Source: a virus
Taxonomy: Duplodnaviria; Heunggongvirae; Uroviricota; Caudoviricetes
Virus record (IMG/VR): IMGVR_UViG_2698536339_000002
Direction: 5' to 3' (one strand)
DNA: 25,965 nucleotides
The notes under the pieces: model-generated
The model's input: only the letters and a program-made list of their open reading frames with translations
What the model was told of the DNA's origin: nothing
Database searches by the model: none
In this document: piece by piece, positions 1,817 to 25,965 of the stretch
Layout: each line of letters starts with the position of its first letter
How positions within the stretch are numbered: the stretch's first letter is position 1
Made by a program: the position numbers and the translations under genes

Positions 1817-2349
1817 CTCTGTTGTTTTAATAAAATTTTAATATTTTGTCTGATTATGATGAGGCAATGTAATAAAAGAAATACCGTTAGTATTGCAAGC
1901 CATACGCAAAATAAGCATGCATATAAATTAGTTGAAAGTCCAATAGTGAATTGTGCAATTGCTGTTGTGATAGAACATAATATTGATGTATTAATAAATG
2001 AGGATAAATTGTCTAAAGGTTTATAAAGTACACTATCATTGATTTTGTCAATAGGTATACCAGTGGCAATGCTATAAATTTCCTTATATTCCTGAGTTGC
2101 AAAAACCTTATCGCGTAAATTTATTATGACAAAGGTATGCAGGCTCAATAAAAATGAACCCACGGAAATAAAACCGGAGAAGAGATAGCCTCGTAAGTTT
2201 TTATGATAAAAATCAAAAAAGTTAACACTTACTTTAGGTGTGTTTCTGTACAATAGGTAAAGTGCAAGCAATGCCAGGATCGAGAATGCAAGCAGTGTAA
2301 TGTACTGATACCTCAATCTTTTATTTATTAGCCATTCATATAAAGGCAT
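1801..2349 (-). CDS. Hypothetical integral membrane protein (about 4 predicted TM helices), second gene of AT-rich cassette
   Basis: 182-aa ORF with four long hydrophobic stretches (approx. residues 16-34, 55-79, 117-138, 141-167) and a basic C-terminus (KQQRKKGG). Start overlaps the upstream gene's end by 14 nt. Very AT-rich codon usage, unlike the flanking phage genes. Confidence 0.6.
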   Translation of the reverse strand: MPLYEWLINKRLRYQYITLLAFSILALLALYLLYRNTPKVSVNFFDFYHKNLRGYLFSGFISVGSFLLSLHTFVIINLRDKVFATQEYKEIYSIATGIPIDKINDSVLYKPLDNLSSFINTSILCSITTAIAQFTIGLSTNLYACLFCVWLAILTVFLLLHCLIIIRQNIKILLKQQRKKGG

Positions 2350-3262
2350 TTTTATTCGTCCCGTTCAGCATTTCTTCTTTTATCATATCAAAAACAGGGT
2401 TTGTTGTATAATTATCGTTTGTCAATCCATTGACTTTATCGGCAATTATATCGAAATCGTATGTTTCAAAAAAAACAGGGCAGTTCATAAAATCAATGGT
2501 TTTTTCTATTCCTGCATGGTTTACTGCAATAACCTGTGCTTTAGCAACTCCACTCATAGAATTATAAATATTTGAAAGATTCTGAGATAGTTGTTGCACT
2601 TTTGTTCTGTCGCTAGAATTAAAATTCATATCTATTGTGGTGGTGTTAACAAATTGTTCAAGCGCAGTCATTGGCCCACCTTTAAAATCTATATAATTAA
2701 ATTTAAAGCTTGTGCTTTTAATCTCTTTGAATTGACATAAAACACTCTGAATGTTGTTTTTATTTGTCATAAGGCTGAAAGTCAGTCTTTCTTTGTATTT
2801 TTTATTTATTGCAGTTACTTCTTTTTGTTTTGGTTTATCTCCAAGTTTTTTTATTTCTTCTTTATTTTGATTTCTGATAAATTCATTACTTATTGTTTCT
2901 AAATGAGAAAAGAGAGTGTTCAGGCTGCATGAACCGTGGTGATACATATAGAGACCAGAAAGATTAGATTTTTTAATTAAGAAAAAGTTGAAATTAGCAA
3001 GTTTGTCACTTCCTTGAAGATCTTCAATTTTAAGCTGGAATTTACCATCAACAAATTGCGACTTACAGTTCTTTTTTTGGTTTCTGAATGTGACAACTAA
3101 TCCATAATAGAAATCATTCACATCCGAAATGAGAATTTTACGAGTATAGTCTGTGCGACTGTGTTCTCTGTTTGATGCGTTGATAAAAGCATTCATTACG
3201 TCAACGGTATTAATATTTTTGTTATTGTTATTTATTGTAAATCCTATGCTTCTAACTTTCAT
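2336..3262 (-). CDS. Hypothetical soluble protein (308 aa), first gene of AT-rich cassette; no recognisable motifs
   Basis: Long uninterrupted minus-strand ORF in a strongly AT-rich segment, rich in Asn/Lys/Ile. No Walker A, HxH, DPPY or other signature seen by eye. Overlaps the downstream membrane gene by 14 nt, suggesting an operon. Confidence 0.6.
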   Translation of the reverse strand: MKVRSIGFTINNNNKNINTVDVMNAFINASNREHSRTDYTRKILISDVNDFYYGLVVTFRNQKKNCKSQFVDGKFQLKIEDLQGSDKLANFNFFLIKKSNLSGLYMYHHGSCSLNTLFSHLETISNEFIRNQNKEEIKKLGDKPKQKEVTAINKKYKERLTFSLMTNKNNIQSVLCQFKEIKSTSFKFNYIDFKGGPMTALEQFVNTTTIDMNFNSSDRTKVQQLSQNLSNIYNSMSGVAKAQVIAVNHAGIEKTIDFMNCPVFFETYDFDIIADKVNGLTNDNYTTNPVFDMIKEEMLNGTNKNAFI

Positions 3263-3881: not shown

Positions 3882-4934
3882 ATGAAAAATACTGTAAAAA
3901 TAAACAGTGTTGATTTAATCAACGCTGATTGCCTGCATTTTATTCAGTCCCTGCCTGATGATTCCATTGACCTGATTGTTACCGATCCGCCGTACTTCAA
4001 GGTGAAACCCAACGGCTGGGACAATCAGTGGAAAGGGGACGAAGATTACCTTAAGTGGCTGGACCACTGTCTGGCCCAGTTCTGGCGGGTGTTAAAACCT
4101 GCCGGAAGCCTTTACCTGTTCTGTGGGCATCGCCTGGCATCTGATATTGAGATCATGATGCGTGAACGTTTCAACGTGCTTAACCATATCATCTGGGCGA
4201 AGCCGTCCGGACGTTGGAATGGGTGTAATAAAGAAAGTCTGCGCGCATATTTTCCTGCCACAGAGCGCGTTCTGTTTGCTGAACATTACCAGGGACCATA
4301 TCGCGGCAAAAGTGACGGCTATGCGGCAAAAGAAAGGGAACTCAAACAGCACATAATGGCACCGCTGATATCGTATTTCAGGGATGCTCGTGCCGAACTG
4401 GGTATAACGGCAAAACAAATTGCCGAAGCCACAGGTAAGAAAAATATGGTTTCCCACTGGTTTGGTGCCAGTCAGTGGCAGTTGCCGAATGAGGCTGACT
4501 ATCGGAAGTTACAGGCACTGTTTTCCCGTATAGCGGCAGAGAAGTTTCAGGAACAACAACTGGAACAACCACACCACCAGCTGGTGGCATCTTATGATTC
4601 ACTGAATCGTAAATATTCTGAATTGCTGGATGAGTTTAAATCTCTCCGGCGCTATTTCTCCGTATCAGTCTCCGTGCCTTATACCGATGTCTGGATGCAT
4701 AAACCCGTTCAGTTCTACCCGGGGAAACATCCGTGTGAGAAACCGGCGGATATGCTCAGGCAAATAATCAATGCCAGTAGTCGACCAGGTGATCTGGTTG
4801 CTGATTTTTTTATGGGATCCGGTTCCACAATAAAAGCAGCAATGGCGCTGGGGCGTCGGGCCTTAGGTGTTGAGCTTGAGTCAGAGCGGTTTAATCAGAC
4901 AGTGAAAGAGATAAACGAGCTGGTGGGGAAATAA
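3882..4934 (+). CDS. Orphan DNA methyltransferase, beta-class amino-MTase (N6-adenine or N4-cytosine)
   Basis: Catalytic motif IV DPPY (LIVTDPPYF) lies near the N-terminus and the AdoMet-binding motif I (DFFMGSGST) near the C-terminus. This IV-then-I order defines beta-class amino-methyltransferases. No adjacent restriction endonuclease candidate. Confidence 0.85.
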
Positions 4935-5217: not shown

Positions 5218-5783
5218 TGCCTCCATCATTACGAAAAGCCGTTGCTGCTGCTATTGGTGGCGGAGCAATTGCTATAGCATCAGTGTTAATCACTGGCCCA
5301 AGTGGTGACGATGGCCTGGAAGGTGTCAGCTACATACCATACAAAGATATCGTTGGCGTATGGACTGTATGTCACGGACACACCGGAAAAGACATCATGC
5401 TCGGTAAAACGTATACCGAAGCAGAATGCAAAGCCCTCCTGAATAAAGACCTTGCCACGGTTGCCAGACAAATTAACCCGTACATCAAAGTCGATATACC
5501 GGAAACAACGCGCGGCGCTCTTTACTCGTTCGTCTACAACGTGGGTGCTGGCAATTTCAGAACATCGACGCTTCTTCGCAAAATAAACCAGGGCGATATC
5601 AAAGGCGCATGTGACCAGCTACGTCGCTGGATATACGCTGGCGGTAAGCAATGGAAAGGCCTGATGACTCGTCGTGAGATTGAGCGTGAAGTTTGCCTGT
5701 GGGCAGAAAAACCTCAGGTTCTTGGTGATGGGCTCGGGCCGCTTAACCCAGGCATTCCGGTATCAGTTCCGGGGGTATTCTGA
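5217..5783 (+). CDS. R: SAR endolysin (signal-anchor-release lysozyme, phage 21 R-like)
   Basis: N-terminal Gly/Ala-rich weakly hydrophobic SAR segment ([20 protein letters not shown]) followed by a lysozyme domain with Glu35, Asp44 and Thr50 at the expected catalytic spacing. Directly follows the pinholin. Confidence 0.85.
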
Positions 5784-6319
5784 TGAAACCCAGAAAAATT
5801 ACGATTGTTGCGGTTCTGCTGGTGGCTGTCGTAATCATTATTGCAGTGCTTAGCGTATTACTGGTTCGTAGCCGCTCAGCTCTTGAAACAGAACAGAGTG
5901 AGAATCGGGTATTACGTAATGATAACGCGCTGCAGGCGACGGTGATAACTACACAGGCTTTCAACTTCAATCGGTTTAACCAGATAGCAGAGAACGCCAA
6001 CCGCCTTAACTCGCTGATCGATGCCGGTACTGAGAAAACTGTCATCGAATACCGGGAGATTCTCCGACGTGAAAAGACCTGTGATCTGCCTGTTCCTGCT
6101 GATGTCGCTGGTGGGCTGCTCAAATACGCGTACCGTTTACGTGCCAGCGCAATGCACCCCGATACCGGGAACACTAACGCAACCGATGATAGTACCGCTG
6201 CCGCCAGCTCAATGACGTATTGCCAGGCCGTCCTCTGGATTGAACCTTTGCTGGCTGTTATTGAGAAGGGCAACAATAACCTGGCGGGTATACGAGAGAT
6301 TGAGAAGTTACGAAAATGA
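5783..6319 (+). CDS. Rz: i-spanin (Rz-like), type II inner-membrane protein
   Basis: N-terminal TM helix (ITIVAVLLVAVVIIIAVLSVLLV) then a charged, coiled-coil-like periplasmic domain. Start overlaps the endolysin stop (TGATG). The o-spanin gene is embedded within it. Confidence 0.75.
   Translation: MKPRKITIVAVLLVAVVIIIAVLSVLLVRSRSALETEQSENRVLRNDNALQATVITTQAFNFNRFNQIAENANRLNSLIDAGTEKTVIEYREILRREKTCDLPVPADVAGGLLKYAYRLRASAMHPDTGNTNATDDSTAAASSMTYCQAVLWIEPLLAVIEKGNNNLAGIREIEKLRK
6069..6215 (+). CDS. Rz1: o-spanin (Rz1-like) outer-membrane lipoprotein, embedded in +1 frame within Rz
   Basis: GTG start at 6069 preceded by GGGAGA. Signal peptide with lipobox LVGC, then a Pro-rich mature region (PAQCTPIPGTLTQPMIVPLPP). 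Fully nested in Rz in the +1 frame. Confidence 0.65.
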   Translation: MKRPVICLFLLMSLVGCSNTRTVYVPAQCTPIPGTLTQPMIVPLPPAQ

Positions 6320-6581
6320 ATAATGTCCGTTGACATTGTTAGGGTGATTCTCATTTAACAACCTCAACTGCTACATTACAGTGCTTCATCATGCAATTAG
6401 CTTTTTCACCAATGGCTTAGATCCAGTGAAAGTTACTGACGTTATCTAATGACAAGATGAACGTAGCTTTTGTGTAGTTTTTCAGCGAATAGGATTATCT
6501 GAATTTAGCATTTTTGGCTTGTATAAACTGTGGGTAAGTAGCTATAGTCACGTCATAGATAGTATTTTTGCATCTTTTTCA

Positions 6582-6601
6582 AGCCTCTTTTGAGGCTTTT
6601 T
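6582..6601 (+). terminator. Rho-independent terminator in the noncoding gap after the lysis cassette
   Basis: AGCCTC / TTTT / GAGGCT hairpin followed by a T-run. Confidence 0.45.
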
Positions 6602-6689
6602 GCACATTTAAATATGACAACAATGGCACATATAGTATGTCCCCCTTGGCACAGGCACTATATGTAGCGCTATAAAAGGAACTATCATT

Positions 6690-6890
6690 ATGACCCCAGC
6701 TGAGTTCTACGATGTTTACAATATCAAACCGGCAGAAATGTTGACTGGTGAAACTGTTAACAACTTCGCTTCTCGTGTAATGGCACAGCAAACTAGTACG
6801 AGTGGAAACACAGGTGTTTGGTACTCACAAGGTACCGCTACACAATCGAAGCAAAACCAAACTACAAGTCATCAACTTTACACGTACTGA
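6690..6890 (+). CDS. Small hypothetical protein (66 aa), first gene of a two-gene accessory insert
   Basis: ATG with AAGGA Shine-Dalgarno 8-9 nt upstream. Product has a Gln/Thr/Ser-rich C-terminal half. Separated from the next gene by only 3 nt. Confidence 0.45.
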   Translation: MTPAEFYDVYNIKPAEMLTGETVNNFASRVMAQQTSTSGNTGVWYSQGTATQSKQNQTTSHQLYTY

Positions 6891-6893
6891 TTT

Positions 6894-7796
6894 ATGCCTA
6901 ATTGGAGCGACGTACTGGGCGAGATAACGGCTCTCGCCCATAAAAGTCCTATGGATGAGGTTCGCCGTAAATACTTATCTCAACTTTCGAATCATACTGG
7001 AAGAAATGTAATCACATATTACTCAGGGTGGTTACAGCATGGTGGTGCAGAAGTACGCCATCTTACTCAGATGACTGATGATGATAAGAACGGGTTGATG
7101 ACAGCCATCAATGGTTTAGATGTATCAAAAGGGTTGGATTTGATACTTCATACTCCAGGTGGTGATATTGCCGCTTTGGAATCAATCGGGCATTACTTAA
7201 GGTCGAAGTTTGGAACTAACATCAGAGCAATTGTTCCTATGATTTCAATGTCCTGCGGAACTATGCTTGCATGTTGTGCCAATGAAATCATCATGGGTAA
7301 ACAGTCCAACATTGGCCCAATTGATCCTCAGTTCAACGGTTTCTCCACCCATGCCATCATTGAAGAATGGAATCGTGCGCAGACGGAAATTTTTCAAAAT
7401 CCCGCAGCTGTTCAGATGTGGCAGTTCATTCTTCAAAAGCTAAACCCGACGATCATCGGCGAGTGTGAGAAAGCAATCAAATGGGCAAATGAGATTGTTA
7501 AGCATTGGCTTATGACAGGCATGTTTGATAATGATCCTGAGGCAGAATCAAAAGCAACACATGTTTGTTCAGAGTTAAACAACCATCACACAACCTATAC
7601 CCACTCGCGTCATATTCATTTTGATAAGGCGCAGAAAATTGGGTTGAATGTTACCGAACTTGAAAGTGATCAAGTACTTCAAGATTTGGTTTTGACTATA
7701 CATCACAGCTACATGCATTCTTTTGGTGGAGCACCACTGGCAAAAATCATTGAAAATCATAACGGTAACGCAATGATTTGGAATATCCAGTCTTAA
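6894..7796 (+). CDS. ClpP-fold serine peptidase (SDH / S49-like family), accessory (non-capsid) protease
   Basis: 300-aa product with the ClpP/crotonase-fold peptidase signature LHTPGGD and downstream PMISMSCGTMLACCANE (candidate nucleophile Ser). Lower G+C than the structural genes. Sits between spanins and cos, the slot lambda uses for bor. Confidence 0.65.
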   Translation: MPNWSDVLGEITALAHKSPMDEVRRKYLSQLSNHTGRNVITYYSGWLQHGGAEVRHLTQMTDDDKNGLMTAINGLDVSKGLDLILHTPGGDIAALESIGHYLRSKFGTNIRAIVPMISMSCGTMLACCANEIIMGKQSNIGPIDPQFNGFSTHAIIEEWNRAQTEIFQNPAAVQMWQFILQKLNPTIIGECEKAIKWANEIVKHWLMTGMFDNDPEAESKATHVCSELNNHHTTYTHSRHIHFDKAQKIGLNVTELESDQVLQDLVLTIHHSYMHSFGGAPLAKIIENHNGNAMIWNIQS

Positions 7797-7813
7797 TCCC
7801 CCCTGTCTGATTC

Positions 7814-7838
7814 CAGCCTCGCCTATGCGGGGCTTTTT
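7814..7838 (+). terminator. Rho-independent terminator after the peptidase gene
   Basis: GCCTCGCC / TAT / GCGGGGC imperfect hairpin followed by TTTTTT. Confidence 0.5.
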
Positions 7839-7904
7839 TACGCGTATTGCATACTCAAATCAAACTAGAGTCGTTTAGAAGAGAATTCAAAACGGCGGTC
7901 GGAC

Positions 7905-8125
7905 CTGTGTTTTCTTATGGGTCCTCCCGGCGGGGTTGCCTACCACGGGGCGGGAGCGTCGCGGAAAAAGGCTAGTTTTTGAAATTTCATTCGTCATCAC
8001 CACTACTGTAATGTATTGATATTACGGTTATTTTATTTTTATGGTGTCGATTTTGATTGTTTTTTGTTCACCACTAACACCGTTTGCCTAAAGTTGTTCG
8101 CAAGATGCATGTTTAAAACATTCTG
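7905..8125. other. cos: cos site (cosN nicking region with flanking cosB-like terminase-binding region), lambda-like
   Basis: GGGTCCTCCCGG...CCACGGGGCGGGAGCGTCGCGG aligns with my recollection of the lambda right-end/left-end junction around the 12-nt cohesive end. The predicted equivalent here is about 7948-7959. An AT-rich bendable stretch and TTCATTCGTCATCACC follow, then nu1. Lambda sequence is recalled, not aligned computationally. Confidence 0.6.
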
Positions 8126-8133
8126 GAGCGGGT

Positions 8134-8628
8134 ATGGATCGAGAGTTAAAAAATCTGACGCTGAATATCAGTCAACTGGCGGCACTGTCAGGTGTACATC
8201 GCCAGACTGCTGCGGCAAGGCTGCAAAATCTACCCGTTGCAGGGGGGCATGAAAGCAACCTCAAGCTTTATCGGGTGGTTGATATTGTGTCGGCATTTCT
8301 GGCATTGCCACCGCCGGTTGCAGAAGGCGAAATGGACGCGCATGAGCGCAAAGCCTGGTATCAGTCTGAACGTGAGCGTCTTAAGTTCGAACAGGAAACG
8401 GCACAACTCATTCCGGCCAGTGATGTCAGACGGGAGTTTGCCATCTGGGCAAAAGCGGTCGTGCAGGTGCTGGAGACATTACCGGATATTCTTGAACGTG
8501 ACTGCGGTCTGCAGCCTGCCGCTGTGAGCCGTGTTCAGTCCATTATTGATGATCTGCGCGATCAGATAGCCCTGCGGGTGACTGAAGCAGGTGCGGATGA
8601 TGAGGAGGAATTACAGCAGGAGGAGTAA
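8134..8628 (+). CDS. nu1: Terminase small subunit (gpNu1-like)
   Basis: 164-aa ORF immediately downstream of cos, with an N-terminal HTH-like segment (LNISQLAALSGVHRQTAAARL) and an acidic C-terminus. Stop overlaps the large-subunit start (TAATG). Confidence 0.8.
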   Translation: MDRELKNLTLNISQLAALSGVHRQTAAARLQNLPVAGGHESNLKLYRVVDIVSAFLALPPPVAEGEMDAHERKAWYQSERERLKFEQETAQLIPASDVRREFAIWAKAVVQVLETLPDILERDCGLQPAAVSRVQSIIDDLRDQIALRVTEAGADDEEELQQEE

Positions 8629-10939: not shown

Positions 10940-12447
10940 TGGCAATTCTTGATGATGTGATTGGCGTTTTTTCACCAGGATGGAAAGCGGCAAGGCTGCG
11001 TTCCCGTGCGGTGATCCAGGCTTATGAGGCCGTAAAAACGACGCGGACACACAAAGCCCGGCGGGAAAACCGAACTGCCGACCAGTTAAGCCAGTATGGG
11101 GCCGTGTCGTTACGTGAGCAGGCCCGTTACCTTGATAACAACCACGATCTGGTTATTGGTGTATTTGACAAGCTGGAAGAACGGGTGGTGGGGAAAAACG
11201 GGATTATTGTCGAGCCACATCCGGTATTACGCAATGGGGCCATTGCCCGTGACCTGGCTGCGGAGATTCGCACCCGATGGAGTGAATGGTCTGTCAGTCC
11301 GGAAGTCACCGGGCAGTTTACCCGTCCGATGCTGGAACGTCTGATGCTGCGTACCTGGCTGCGCGATGGTGAGGTGTTTGCCCAGATGGTTTCCGGGCGC
11401 ATAAACAGCCTGACGCCTTCTGCCGGTGTTCATTTCTGGCTGGAGGCGCTCGAGCCGGACTTTATTCCCATGACCAGTGATGAGAGCAACAGGCTGAATC
11501 AGGGCGTGTTTGTTGATGACTGGGGGCGTCCCGAAAAATATCTGGTGTATAAAAGTCGTCCTGTATCCGGACGGCAGATGGAAACCAAAGAAGTGGATGC
11601 AGAGCGAATGCTGCATCTTAAATTTGTTCGCCGTCTGCACCAGATGCGCGGGACGTCTTTATTGTCCGGTGTGCTGATCCGCCTAAGCGCTCTGAAAGAG
11701 TATGAAGATTCTGAGCTGACTGCAGCAAGGATCGCCGCTGCTCTGGGGATGTACATCCGGAAAGGCGACGGGCAGAGCTATGAACCGGATGGTAATGGCA
11801 GCAAGGAGAATGAACGCGAGCTTACCATTCAGCCAGGCATTATTTACGACGATCTGAAACCCGGCGAAGAAATCGGAATGGTGAAGTCGGATCGTCCCAA
11901 TCCTAACCTTGAAACTTTTCGTAATGGTCAGTTGCGTGCCGTGGCGGCGGGCAGTCGTCTGAGTTTTTCCAGTACGGCACGAAACTATAACGGCACTTAC
12001 AGCGCCCAGCGTCAGGAACTGGTTGAGTCTACTGATGGCTACCTGATCCTGCAGGACTGGTTTATTGGTGCCGTCACCCGCCCGATGTATCGTGCCTGGC
12101 TGAAACAGGCTGTGGCATCCGGTGTTATCAGGCTACCCCGCGATCTTGACCGTTCTTCACTGTATACCGCGGTGTATTCCGGACCGGTGATGCCGTGGAT
12201 TGACCCTGTTAAGGAGGCTGAGGCCTGGAAAATCCAGATTCGTGGTGGAGCGGCGACAGAATCAGATTGGGTACGTGCAGGTGGTCGTAATCCGGATGAT
12301 GTCAAACGTCGGCGCAAGGCCGAAATTGATGAAAACCGCAAGCTGGATCTGGTATTTGATACCGATCCGGCCAGTGATAAAGGAGGCAGCAGTGCCGCAA
12401 CGAAACGACAGGAGCCGCAGCACACCGACGACCAGTCCGAAGAATAA
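10939..12447 (+). CDS. B: Portal protein (gpB-like)
   Basis: About 502-aa ORF in lambda-order position between W and the capsid gene. The ORF-track start at 10867 is probably an over-extension; ATG 10939 is translationally coupled to W. Confidence 0.85.
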   Translation: MAILDDVIGVFSPGWKAARLRSRAVIQAYEAVKTTRTHKARRENRTADQLSQYGAVSLREQARYLDNNHDLVIGVFDKLEERVVGKNGIIVEPHPVLRNGAIARDLAAEIRTRWSEWSVSPEVTGQFTRPMLERLMLRTWLRDGEVFAQMVSGRINSLTPSAGVHFWLEALEPDFIPMTSDESNRLNQGVFVDDWGRPEKYLVYKSRPVSGRQMETKEVDAERMLHLKFVRRLHQMRGTSLLSGVLIRLSALKEYEDSELTAARIAAALGMYIRKGDGQSYEPDGNGSKENERELTIQPGIIYDDLKPGEEIGMVKSDRPNPNLETFRNGQLRAVAAGSRLSFSSTARNYNGTYSAQRQELVESTDGYLILQDWFIGAVTRPMYRAWLKQAVASGVIRLPRDLDRSSLYTAVYSGPVMPWIDPVKEAEAWKIQIRGGAATESDWVRAGGRNPDDVKRRRKAEIDENRKLDLVFDTDPASDKGGSSAATKRQEPQHTDDQSEE

Positions 12448-12460
12448 TTCCTGGTTCAGG

Positions 12461-14419
12461 ATGCAGGCTGGTCACCAGAGTGACGCGGATATTTATATTT
12501 ATGACGAGATTGGTTTCTGGGGTGTTACAGCGAAGCAGTTTATCAGTGATCTGAATGCACTGGGCGATATCACCCACATTAATCTCCATATTAATTCACC
12601 GGGTGGCGATGTCTTTGAAGGCATCGCCATTTTTAATGCGCTGAAAACACATGGTGCGTCCATTACCGTTTATGTCGACGGTGTGGCGGCATCAATGGCG
12701 TCGGTCATTGCGATGGTGGGAAACCCGGTCATTATGCCGGAAAACACCTTCATGATGATTCATAAACCATTTGGCTTTACGGGCGGTGATGCGGAGGACA
12801 TGCGCACCTATGCCGACCTGCTCGATAAAGTTGAGGCGGTTCTGTTACCCGCTTATGCACAGAAAACCGGGAAAACCACCGATGAAATTGCTGCCATGCT
12901 GGCGGATGAGACCTGGATGTCCGGTGCCGAATGTCTGGCACATGGATTTGCTGATCAGGTAACGCCAGCCGTTAAGGCAATGGCATGTATTCAGTCAAAA
13001 CGTACAGAGGAATTTAAAAAGATGCCGGAATCCATTCGAAACATGATTACTCCGCCACGCAACAGTGCTCCACGCGTACAGGATGATGAACCTGCAGCCT
13101 CCCGGACGCCAGTGCAGGCAGCAGCACCCGTGGTGGATGAAAACAGTATCCGTGCGCAGGTACTGGCAGAGCAAAAAGCGCGTGTAAACGGTATTAATGA
13201 TCTGTTTGCCATGTTTGGCGGGCGTTATCAGACGCTGCAGGCTCAGTGTCTTGCCGATCCTGAATGTTCGCTGGAGCAGGCCCGCGAAAAGTTGTTGAAC
13301 GAGATGGGGCGCGAGTCCACGCCATCCAATAAAAATACCCCGGCTCATATTTATGCCGGTAACGGTAATTTTGTGGGGGACGGGATCCGCCAGGCGCTGA
13401 TGGCGCGTGCCGGATTTGAAAAAACCGAACGTGATAATGTCTACAACGGGATGACCCTGCGTGAATATGCCCGTATGTCACTGACTGAACGGGGTATTGG
13501 GGTTTCCGGTTATAACCCGATGCAGATGGTCGGTGCGGCGTTCACACACAGTACGTCTGACTTCGGTAATATTCTGCTGGATGTTGCGAACAAAGCCATT
13601 CTGCAGGGCTGGGAAGATGCCCCTGAAACCTATGAACAGTGGACGCGGAAAGGTCAGTTGTCTGATTTTAAAATTGCCCATCGTGTGGGTATGGGGGGCT
13701 TCAGTGCTCTGCGTCAGGTGCGTGAAGGGGCGGAATATAAATACGTCACCACCGGAGATAAACAGGCCACTATTGCACTGGCGACCTATGGCGAGCTGTT
13801 CAGTATCACCCGTCAGGCCATTATCAATGATGATCTGAATATGCTGACCGATGTCCCGATGAAACTGGGCCGTGCGGCGAAATCCACTATTGCCGATCTG
13901 GTTTATGCCATTCTGACGTCTAACCCGAAAATCTCCACAGATAATGTAAGTCTGTTCGATAAAGCGAAACATGCAAACGTACTGGAGAGCGCTGCAATGG
14001 ACGTGGCATCGCTGGATAAAGCCCGCCAGTTGATGCGCGTTCAGAAAGAGGGGGAGCGTCATCTGAATATTCGTCCTGCGTTCGTACTGGTACCGACGGC
14101 GATGGAGTCTGTTGCTAACCAGGTCATTCGCTCCTCAAGTGTCAAGGGGGCTGACATTAACGCCGGTATTATTAACCCGGTGAAAGATTTTGCGACCGTT
14201 ATTGCAGAGCCTCGTCTTGATGATAACAGCCTGACCACCTTCTACCTGGCTGCGTCAAAAGGCTCCGATACGATTGAAGTGGCTTATCTCAACGGTGTGG
14301 ATACGCCATATATTGATCAGATGGAGGGCTTCAGTGTGGATGGCGTGACAACGAAAGTGCGTATTGACGCCGGTGTCGCGCCAGTTGATCACCGCGGTCT
14401 GGTGAAATGTACGGCGTAA
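12461..14419 (+). CDS. Fused head maturation protease (ClpP-like) / scaffold / major capsid protein, tripartite capsid gene
   Basis: N-terminal ClpP-fold head-protease region (GVTAKQFISDL ... INSPGGDVFEGIAIFNAL ... VAASMASVIAMVG), a Gln/Ala/Glu-rich linker, and a C-terminal capsid-like domain, all in one frame. The ORF-track start at 12200 overlaps the portal and is likely artefactual; the first in-frame ATG after the portal stop is 12461. Confidence 0.8.
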   Translation: MQAGHQSDADIYIYDEIGFWGVTAKQFISDLNALGDITHINLHINSPGGDVFEGIAIFNALKTHGASITVYVDGVAASMASVIAMVGNPVIMPENTFMMIHKPFGFTGGDAEDMRTYADLLDKVEAVLLPAYAQKTGKTTDEIAAMLADETWMSGAECLAHGFADQVTPAVKAMACIQSKRTEEFKKMPESIRNMITPPRNSAPRVQDDEPAASRTPVQAAAPVVDENSIRAQVLAEQKARVNGINDLFAMFGGRYQTLQAQCLADPECSLEQAREKLLNEMGRESTPSNKNTPAHIYAGNGNFVGDGIRQALMARAGFEKTERDNVYNGMTLREYARMSLTERGIGVSGYNPMQMVGAAFTHSTSDFGNILLDVANKAILQGWEDAPETYEQWTRKGQLSDFKIAHRVGMGGFSALRQVREGAEYKYVTTGDKQATIALATYGELFSITRQAIINDDLNMLTDVPMKLGRAAKSTIADLVYAILTSNPKISTDNVSLFDKAKHANVLESAAMDVASLDKARQLMRVQKEGERHLNIRPAFVLVPTAMESVANQVIRSSSVKGADINAGIINPVKDFATVIAEPRLDDNSLTTFYLAASKGSDTIEVAYLNGVDTPYIDQMEGFSVDGVTTKVRIDAGVAPVDHRGLVKCTA

Positions 14420-23061: not shown

Positions 23062-25965
<2,904 letters not shown>

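Follow-up and report, generated by a model that had tools for sequence, protein, structure and literature searches.

The window analysed here, the whole 25,965-nucleotide (nt) stretch of the virus record IMGVR_UViG_2698536339_000002 (IMG/VR), is the late region of an Escherichia coli lambdoid prophage. Between its spanin gene and cos lies a self-contained, horizontally mobile, accessory two-gene cargo operon (a moron) of temperate phages and other mobile elements, encoding a 66-amino-acid (aa) partner protein and, downstream of it, a 300-aa ClpP-fold serine peptidase of the SDH (Ser-Asp-His) type. The two genes, both of them real, are obligately linked, diverge together and share a conserved leader, and the peptidase has kept its catalytic residues. 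We tentatively read the pair as a toxin–antitoxin-like or abortive-infection-like module, in which the protease would be the effector and the small protein its inhibitor or pseudo-substrate, a reading that we hold to be possible rather than probable. The cassette comprises the following features.

6430..7851, plus strand: mobile cassette with leader, both genes and 3' terminator, its approximate limits drawn from homology and low G+C
6519..6548, plus strand: predicted sigma70-type promoter P1, with -35 TTGTAT at 6519–6524, an 18-nt spacer and -10 TATAGT at 6543–6548
6581..6601, plus strand: leader intrinsic terminator T1, AAGCCTC-TTTT-GAGGCTT plus a T-run, from folding and covariation
6626..6667, plus strand: leader hairpin with ~11-nt arms (CTACAT.T.GT / AC.A.ATGTAG) and a ~20-nt loop, just 5' of the ribosome-binding site
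6676..6682, plus strand: putative ribosome-binding site of the small open reading frame (ORF), AAAGGAA, as read from the sequence
6690..6890, plus strand: gene of the 66-aa partner protein (PHROG 25714, purifying selection, frame-specific homologues)
6894..7796, plus strand: gene of the 300-aa SDH-type ClpP-fold serine peptidase (PF01972, PHROG 11747, invariant triad, AlphaFold2 model)
7815..7840, plus strand: 3' intrinsic terminator T2, eight pairs, six of them G-C, then TTTTTT (from a terminator scan; hairpin 7815–7834)

From its residues and its modelled fold, we are confident that the downstream gene encodes a catalytically intact, ClpP-like serine protease of the SDH type. The protein matched the Pfam family PF01972 (SDH_protease) over residues 22–255 with an E of 8.4e-23 and 81.2 bits, against a gathering cutoff of 31.3, and PHROG 11747, whose function is not assigned, with an E of 2e-138. 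The 95.9 bits obtained against the NCBIfam equivalog NF047768 (Clp_like_SDH) lie below its cutoff of 250, so that the peptidase is a related non-member and belongs to a subfamily separate from the NF047768 group. The SppA model TIGR00706 gave 16 bits (cutoff 155), and the head-maturation protease model NF045542 gave 20.9 bits (cutoff 120), along with a weak match to phrog_53 (E 6e-5). The initial annotation had taken the gene for a second, non-capsid ClpP-fold peptidase on account of an LHTPGGD signature, and the Pfam match, the structural model and the fusion of the head protease to the capsid gene bear this out; between the two families that it had named as candidates, SDH_sah and Peptidase_S49, the profile searches returned an SDH_protease match, with scores below the cutoff for S49/SppA.

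The LHTPGGD motif occupies residues 85–91 and contains the oxyanion-hole motif HTPGG at 86–90. This motif and the triad Ser120, Asp144 and His237 were invariant when 19 and 50 homologues, some as little as 38% identical, were aligned, so that the active-site alignment, likewise proposed in the initial annotation, came out in favour of an intact enzyme. Ser120 is embedded in M-S-[AC]-G-T, Asp144 in G-P-I-D-P-Q and His237 in H-[SA]-R-H; in ClpP and NfeD 1510-N, the catalytic Ser is the aligned counterpart of Ser120, and the oxyanion-hole TPGG that of HTPGG. In the subfamily, moreover, the start Met-Pro-x-Trp is invariant and the C-terminus forms a helical domain. Since the Met-Pro start was invariant in both the 19- and the 50-sequence alignments, we place the start codon at 6894. 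The annotation of E. coli YPE10 starts the peptidase late (282 aa) and drops the invariant Met-Pro-Asn-Trp amino terminus.

The AlphaFold2 model of the peptidase reached a predicted local distance difference test (pLDDT) score of 89.9 and a predicted template-modelling score (pTM) of 0.87. Its closest folds in the PDB were ClpP chains (probability 1.00, TM-score on the target 0.55–0.68), followed by SppA, with a sequence identity to the nearest solved folds of 10–16% and of about 10% to SppA. Structure searches yielded no solved structure for any member of the peptidase family. Neither the peptidase nor its partner has a predicted signal peptide or membrane segment, and both are predicted to be cytoplasmic. 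The family comprises at least 8000 clusters at 90% identity (8000 of the 8000 scored candidates matched), and the full-length subfamily about 350 clusters at 50% identity (E <= 1e-30); a search of genome contigs with the peptidase alone returned one close relative, from Mangrovibacter. Among viral structural neighbours in BFVD, those nearest to the model were giant-virus proteins labelled 'serine dehydrogenase proteinase', from Marseillevirus, Mimivirus, Klosneuvirus and others. Judging from these models, the SDH protease fold appears to be common in nucleocytoplasmic large DNA viruses too.

The tightly linked 66-aa ORF upstream, which the initial annotation had located at 6690–6890, is indeed present there and is separated from the peptidase gene by its TGA plus 3 nt. 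Its product matched PHROG 25714 (E 4e-44), with no match in Pfam, NCBIfam or PADLOC, so that the family has no name; a tblastn search with it against phage genomes returned nothing. All its relatives were therefore recovered by reading the DNA 5' of peptidase homologues, in a survey of 80 IMG/VR contigs, four annotated phages and a dozen genomic loci. In 66 of 68 non-redundant loci, an ORF on the same strand, 50 aa or longer (median 69 aa), abutted or slightly overlapped the start of the peptidase gene, compared with 14.6% for shuffled upstream DNA, which is the co-occurrence that the initial annotation had proposed to look for. Within the pairs the partner gene lay 5', at a distance of -35 to +60 nt. 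The two loci lacking an abutting partner ORF, L083 and L085 (IMG/VR), form a small clade of their own in the peptidase tree, and in L083 a serine recombinase gene ends 127 nt upstream. RefSeq left the partner ORF unannotated in the genomes inspected; depositors and PGAP routinely do the same, for example in the Gordonia phage BeeGee (L005, 3825–4001).

The partners fell into three types, each corresponding to one clade of the peptidase tree. Type A, of the enterobacterial clade, whose peptidases are 61–100% identical, was represented by 26 unique sequences in 51 loci, and its hidden Markov model (HMM) matched solely the frame abutting the peptidase, with E of 1e-24 to 1e-33. Its motifs are (E/Q)(F/L)Y..(G)I.P.E near the N-terminus, G-V-x-Y-S-x-G-T in the centre and L-Y-(S/T)-Y at the C-terminus; in the 66-aa protein, an N-terminal helical part is followed by a Ser/Thr/Gln-rich C-terminal half with GVWYSQGT and the C-terminal LYTY. 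Type B was seen in Pseudomonas, Methylomonas and Dehalobacter, among others, and can be aligned with type A by profile (hhalign E 9e-5, 45 columns) over a common core V-x-Y-(S/A), where V43 and Y45 are conserved across the two types and Tyr45 is invariant in both. Type C has the N-terminal helix motif alone in common with them. Codon analysis gave a ratio of nonsynonymous to synonymous substitution rates (dN/dS) of 0.05–0.15 for the partner, with synonymous sites near saturation. The type A pair co-diverges, with r = 0.90 over 406 pairs, and the mean identity within this type is 43% for the partner compared with 72% for the peptidase, the partner thus evolving about twice as fast.

AlphaFold2 modelling of the partner alone gave helices at residues 3–9 and 23–37 and a pLDDT below 50 for the remainder. 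The C-terminal half is accordingly predicted to be disordered, yet it bears conserved motifs, a combination that, going by the model, would be the signature of a segment folding upon binding its partner. Taken together, conservation, co-divergence and purifying selection strongly support the small ORF as a real, conserved and dedicated functional partner of the peptidase, as the initial annotation had surmised. The peptidase gene has no obvious Shine-Dalgarno sequence, which suggests that its translation is coupled to that of the partner. At 6888–6896 the two ORFs share one frame, with TGA-TTT between them; a fusion of both by stop-codon read-through was considered and rejected, as in most lineages the gap is out of frame (2–14 nt) or the genes overlap. 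A minus-strand ORF of 70 aa (6579–6791) that overlaps the small gene was likewise rejected, because conservation tracks the plus-strand frame.

The limits of the cassette were drawn from comparisons with related elements. Homology to diverged cassettes starts at window positions 6429–6510, and homology to cassettes of prophages with other packaging modules stops at about 7851. The G+C content over 6200–7800 is 0.38–0.43 (about 0.41) compared with 0.49–0.56 on either flank, in line with the lower G+C relative to the structural genes that had been noted initially. The placement between spanins and cos also held, since the record ends of phages cdtI, Tritos and mEp460_4F5 map to 7943–7948, about 100 nt 3' of the cassette. 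The probable cohesive-end site at 7943–7960, GGGGCGGGAGCG, resembles lambda cosN, and the linear records of these three phages start there.

The complete cassette was present in 42 of 5426 complete E. coli genomes, and it sits in different packaging backbones, with a DUF1441 protein plus large terminase in strain 120899 and a lambda-like terminase in YPE10, where another cargo gene lies 3' of it. Phages phi458, mEp460 and PhiR47_1 share the cos/terminase region without the cassette, and unrelated small genes fill their slot. Elsewhere the pair occupies other cargo positions: between the late activator and lysis genes in a Mu-like Shewanella phage, next to HicAB in Porphyromonas phages, 3' of the tail genes in Gordonia phage BeeGee, at the att/int edge of a prophage in Pseudomonas, in the nin region of a lambdoid prophage in Klebsiella, and, in Firmicutes prophages, whose hosts include Dehalobacter, one of the hosts of type B, between the modules for lysis and lysogeny. 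At non-phage loci the two-gene unit was found beside Fic and YafQ toxins; beside a Shedu-type SduA_C nuclease, a PIN protein and insertion sequence (IS) elements; beside an MmeI-like type IIG restriction enzyme; beside a D12 methyltransferase; beside a RES-Xre toxin–antitoxin pair on an Acidiphilium plasmid; and at the edge of a mobile element in Methylomonas. Among 72,556 plasmid records, four held a full-length close homologue.

Moron, as Hendrix and colleagues use the word, denotes cargo of temperate phages that forms a unit on its own. The cassette answers to this description in its presence or absence among related phages, its occurrence in different backbones, its deviant base composition and its terminator T2, as well as in a promoter motif of its own that was recognised by sequence. 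It is dispensable for virion assembly, because relatives with the same packaging and head module go without it and because it also occurs outside phages. The same conclusion had been drawn initially from the head protease being part of the capsid gene, and the protease–capsid fusion at 12200–14416 and the absence of the cassette from close relatives agree with it.

The leader is organised alike in 24 distinct leaders, with a putative promoter, a GC-rich hairpin plus T-run, a larger hairpin and the ribosome-binding site in this order. The position of P1 and its 18-nt spacing are kept in all enterobacterial lineages, with TTGTAT, TTGTCA or TTGCAA as the -35 element and TATAGT or GATATT as the -10 element. 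In the present cassette the -35 element matches three of the six consensus positions, and a consensus scan did not pick P1; from its conserved placement we infer that it is an active promoter. A second promoter over the left hairpin arm (TTTAAA-18-TATAGT) was rejected as a general feature, as its -10 element is not kept in other lineages.

T1 follows P1 at about 35 nt, lies about 35–46 nt past the predicted transcription start and folds with a free energy (dG) of -10.8 kcal/mol (z -3.3), although it failed the T-run rule of the terminator scan. Five of its seven pairs showed double-sided compensatory changes, as in GACCTCC/GGAGGTT, with the T-run kept, and the first helix swaps wholesale between AAGCCTC/GAGGCTT and GACCTCC/GGAGGTT. 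T2, at the other end of the cassette, has a dG of -13.5 (z -3.8). The initial annotation had described terminators on both sides of the gene pair; both hairpins are real, but the upstream one lies 3' of the cassette promoter and is part of the leader rather than a mere insulator. As T1 stands between P1 and the genes, transcripts from P1 should mostly stop after about 46 nt. T1 could be an attenuator that keeps expression low, it could end a short RNA with a role of its own, or it could be a gate that antiterminated polymerase opens in lytic growth.

The larger hairpin, with a dG of -14.6, was present in all 24 distinct leaders and contains a perfect 9-nt inverted repeat (6628–6636 and 6657–6665). 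Its central pair covaries (AU 7, GC 6, CG 3), G-U pairs are tolerated, and 89.4% of cells in the alignment are paired. For the leader structure as a whole, 88.7% of cells pair compared with 27–52% with slid partners, and double-sided changes occur in 46 cells compared with 6–20 in controls. A purine-rich GGAG/AGGA block is kept at the position of the ribosome-binding site. Since G-U pairs are tolerated and the element sits 3' of the terminator, the hairpin is more likely a sense-strand RNA element than a protein operator. An Rfam scan of 6200–8200 returned no known RNA family, merely sub-threshold chance matches. Pseudomonas-type modules (L064, L087, L061, L069, L071, L073) lack the enterobacterial leader; immediately 5' of their ribosome-binding site is a short hairpin, CGTA-NGGA-TACG, whose flanks show compensatory changes, and a TTGCTAGTATCGC motif precedes this hairpin.

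Turning to function, the upstream position of the partner gene, the tight spacing and the conserved motifs in a disordered tail are traits resembling those of antitoxins or inhibitors, and gene order, spacing, disorder and co-divergence would, as far as sequence can tell, be compatible with a type II toxin–antitoxin pair. A model of the toxin–antitoxin or abortive-infection kind is the most economical one because it accommodates an intact cytoplasmic protease, a constant, disordered and fast-evolving upstream partner, tight expression control, dispensability and neighbours from toxin–antitoxin and defence systems. From these features we infer how the partner may bind, the direction in which control may run, what the targets may be and that a defence phenotype may result. 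The effector would be the cytoplasmic SDH protease with its ClpP fold, and the dedicated, fast-evolving, largely disordered protein of ~60–70 aa would be its partner. That the partner binds the protease directly is probable; that it does so in the active site is a conjecture. Most likely, the V-x-Y-(S/A) core and the enterobacterial C-terminal LY(S/T)Y would dock as an extended strand into the substrate groove, the docked partner being either a pseudo-substrate inhibitor or a cleavable bait. The promoter-proximal terminator in the conserved leader would hold expression low, and in the lysogen the partner would restrain the protease. If an infecting phage, loss of the element or another perturbation then removed or cleaved the partner, the protease would be freed to attack host or phage proteins, leading to phage exclusion by abortive infection, or to addiction.

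Broader, and put forward with still more reserve, is the proposal that the pair may be the founding example of an unrecognised, widespread protease-based anti-phage or abortive-infection system that spread as a moron and is controlled by the conserved leader. This proposal covers an SDH-type protease that would be kept latent by, or triggered through, a fast-evolving disordered bait or inhibitor, and its spread among prophages of Proteobacteria, Firmicutes, Bacteroidota and Actinobacteria. The initial annotation had suggested a lysogenic-conversion or phage-exclusion function, a guess that would fit the genomic company of the pair, with no known defence model matching; classical conversion of the Bor kind is unlikely because both proteins are without signal peptides and membrane segments.

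Several observations weigh against a defence-type module. Neither protein matched a PADLOC-DB v2.0.0 family at E <= 0.1, and no paper on the family or the pair was found in the searchable literature, most subscription journals lying outside its reach; a paper on Shewanella MuM16-1 and a defence-discovery paper of 2026 do not mention the peptidase family. The neighbourhood evidence consists of about six hand-picked non-phage loci and is qualitative, with no enrichment statistic, and 2 of the 68 loci have no partner ORF. As the palindrome in the leader seems to act as an RNA hairpin, the classic autoregulation of type II toxin–antitoxin systems is not evident. Finally, the cassette is co-oriented with the late genes in most phages and could therefore equally serve the lytic cycle.

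This last point leads to the view of the cassette as a lytic-cycle helper, in which late, Q-antiterminated transcription would read through T1 and the protease would process or degrade a host or phage protein for the benefit of the carrying phage, for instance by removing a host defence or stress factor, with the small protein as an adaptor or timing inhibitor. Antiterminated polymerase passes terminators in established lambda biology and would bypass a T1 placed next to the promoter, and the co-orientation with late or structural genes extends over lambdoid, Mu-like, Porphyromonas, Gordonia and Firmicutes phages. We nevertheless consider this account unlikely, since the Pseudomonas pair lies at a prophage edge, convergent with int and away from late transcription, stand-alone pairs occur in chromosomes and plasmids beside toxin–antitoxin and restriction–modification genes with no phage present, the cassette appears by sequence to have its own conserved promoter, and closely related phages manage without it. 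A pure addiction module, stabilising the prophage or mobile element by post-segregational killing with no role against other phages, has the type II layout on its side, in which a small, fast-evolving gene for a disordered protein precedes a larger gene for an enzyme, as well as adjoining toxin–antitoxin pairs and plasmid occurrences. Compared with prophages, however, plasmids rarely carry the pair (the four records noted above), and addiction in this pure form seems to us about as improbable as the helper role. As many toxin–antitoxin systems also act in defence, it overlaps with the toxin–antitoxin-like or abortive-infection-like reading and does not exclude it.

Less probable again is peptide maturation, in which the small protein would be a precursor made up of a conserved leader and a variable core, and the peptidase would cleave it, perhaps at V-x-Y|S, to release a bioactive or signalling peptide. 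The conserved N-terminal helix, the variable hydrophilic C-terminal region and the conserved C-terminus of the partner are what such a precursor could look like, and NfeD 1510-N and stomatin offer a possible precedent, by analogy, for a ClpP-fold protease beside the gene of its substrate; but no signal peptide, transporter or modifying enzyme is found in or beside the cassette, both proteins are predicted to be cytoplasmic, and the C-terminal region is wholly different among partner types A, B and C. The idea of a virion structural or assembly protease, or of a degenerate duplicate of the head-maturation protease, draws on the weak profile similarities to phrog_53 and NF045542 and is effectively refuted: these scores are far under the cutoffs, the phage already has a protease–capsid fusion, the gene lies outside the head module, and it is absent from phages with the same head and packaging module and occurs outside phages.

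The peptidase family is large and found in prophages of several phyla, yet no function, structure or paper was found for it. A constant, co-evolving disordered partner turns the anonymous label 'S49/SDH family peptidase' into a defined two-component system. Should this system prove to serve defence or addiction, bacterial immunity would gain a class of effectors with a ClpP-fold protease, and the SDH protease family, present in archaea and giant viruses too, would gain its first function.

The cassette is set among the following genes of the window.

1432–1788: Q antiterminator (Pfam Phage_antitermQ match)
3882–4934: orphan DNA methyltransferase, type II-like N6-adenine (PADLOC MTase_II, 505 bits)
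between the methyltransferase and spanin genes: holin, then lysozyme
5783–6319: spanin gene
8134–8628: DUF1441-type small terminase
between the small terminase and the protease/capsid fusion: large terminase, then portal
12200–14416: ClpP-protease/major-capsid fusion (NF045540, 984 bits against a cutoff of 475)

The methyltransferase gene lies immediately 5' of the holin gene and has no restriction partner nearby. Between the Q antiterminator and the methyltransferase/lysis genes, two overlapping minus-strand ORFs (1801–2349 and 2336–3262; 182 and 308 aa) occupy the slot where Shiga toxin (Stx) phages have stx. They had no Pfam or PADLOC match and are labelled hypothetical in RefSeq, and they may be a second cargo pair. 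Two further minus-strand ORFs, 23665–25110 (481 aa) and 25216–25689 (157 aa), sit 3' of the tail genes and likewise had no match in Pfam or PADLOC.

Compared with known systems, the specific pairing, the partner motifs and the leader appear undescribed so far; a prophage moron with a two-gene effector–partner layout is in itself a familiar category. The peptidase is closest to the SDH-type ClpP-like proteinases (PF01972, MEROPS clan SK, 'SDH family Clp fold serine proteinase' in PGAP), for which it scores above the gathering threshold and with which it shares the Ser-Asp-His order, the ClpP-fold core and the TPGG oxyanion motif; neither for the NF047768 group nor for the present subfamily did the searches turn up a biochemical function, a solved structure or a paper. 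The ClpP-related head-maturation proteases (NF045542/PHROG 53) are more distant, having the ClpP fold and the TPGG and Ser motifs in common with the cassette peptidase, but their catalytic residues follow a different order and the cassette gene lies before cos and the terminase genes. As a genetic element, the cassette resembles lambda bor and other morons between Rz and cos in its slot, its own transcription signals, its deviant G+C and its presence or absence among relatives. Bor, however, is one outer-membrane lipoprotein, and its gene lies on the opposite strand, whereas the cassette encodes two cytoplasmic proteins on the late-gene strand, with no sequence relation to it.

For the way in which the partner may engage the protease, NfeD 1510-N with stomatin (Pyrococcus horikoshii PH1510/PH1511) and SppA, ClpP-fold proteases among the nearest solved relatives, serve as working analogies. 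The NfeD 1510-N protease gene sits beside the gene of its specific substrate stomatin, and for SppA a crystal structure is reported in which the active site is occupied by the protein's own C-terminus (PDB 4kwb, among the fold matches). Both have a Ser-Lys dyad and act at membranes, whereas the present protease has a Ser-Asp-His triad and no membrane segment; its identity to them is about 10–16%, and the partner is unrelated to stomatin. What the cassette has in common with type II toxin–antitoxin and abortive-infection systems with a protease effector, such as IetAS or Lit of prophage e14, is that it is a mobile two-gene unit carried by prophages or plasmids, with a protease as its likely effector, a small, disordered, fast-evolving upstream partner, and toxin–antitoxin and defence genes as neighbours. 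These systems have no homology to the present pair, neither protein matching in PADLOC; IetS is a subtilase that works with an ATPase, and a phage peptide triggers Lit, which is a zinc metalloprotease.

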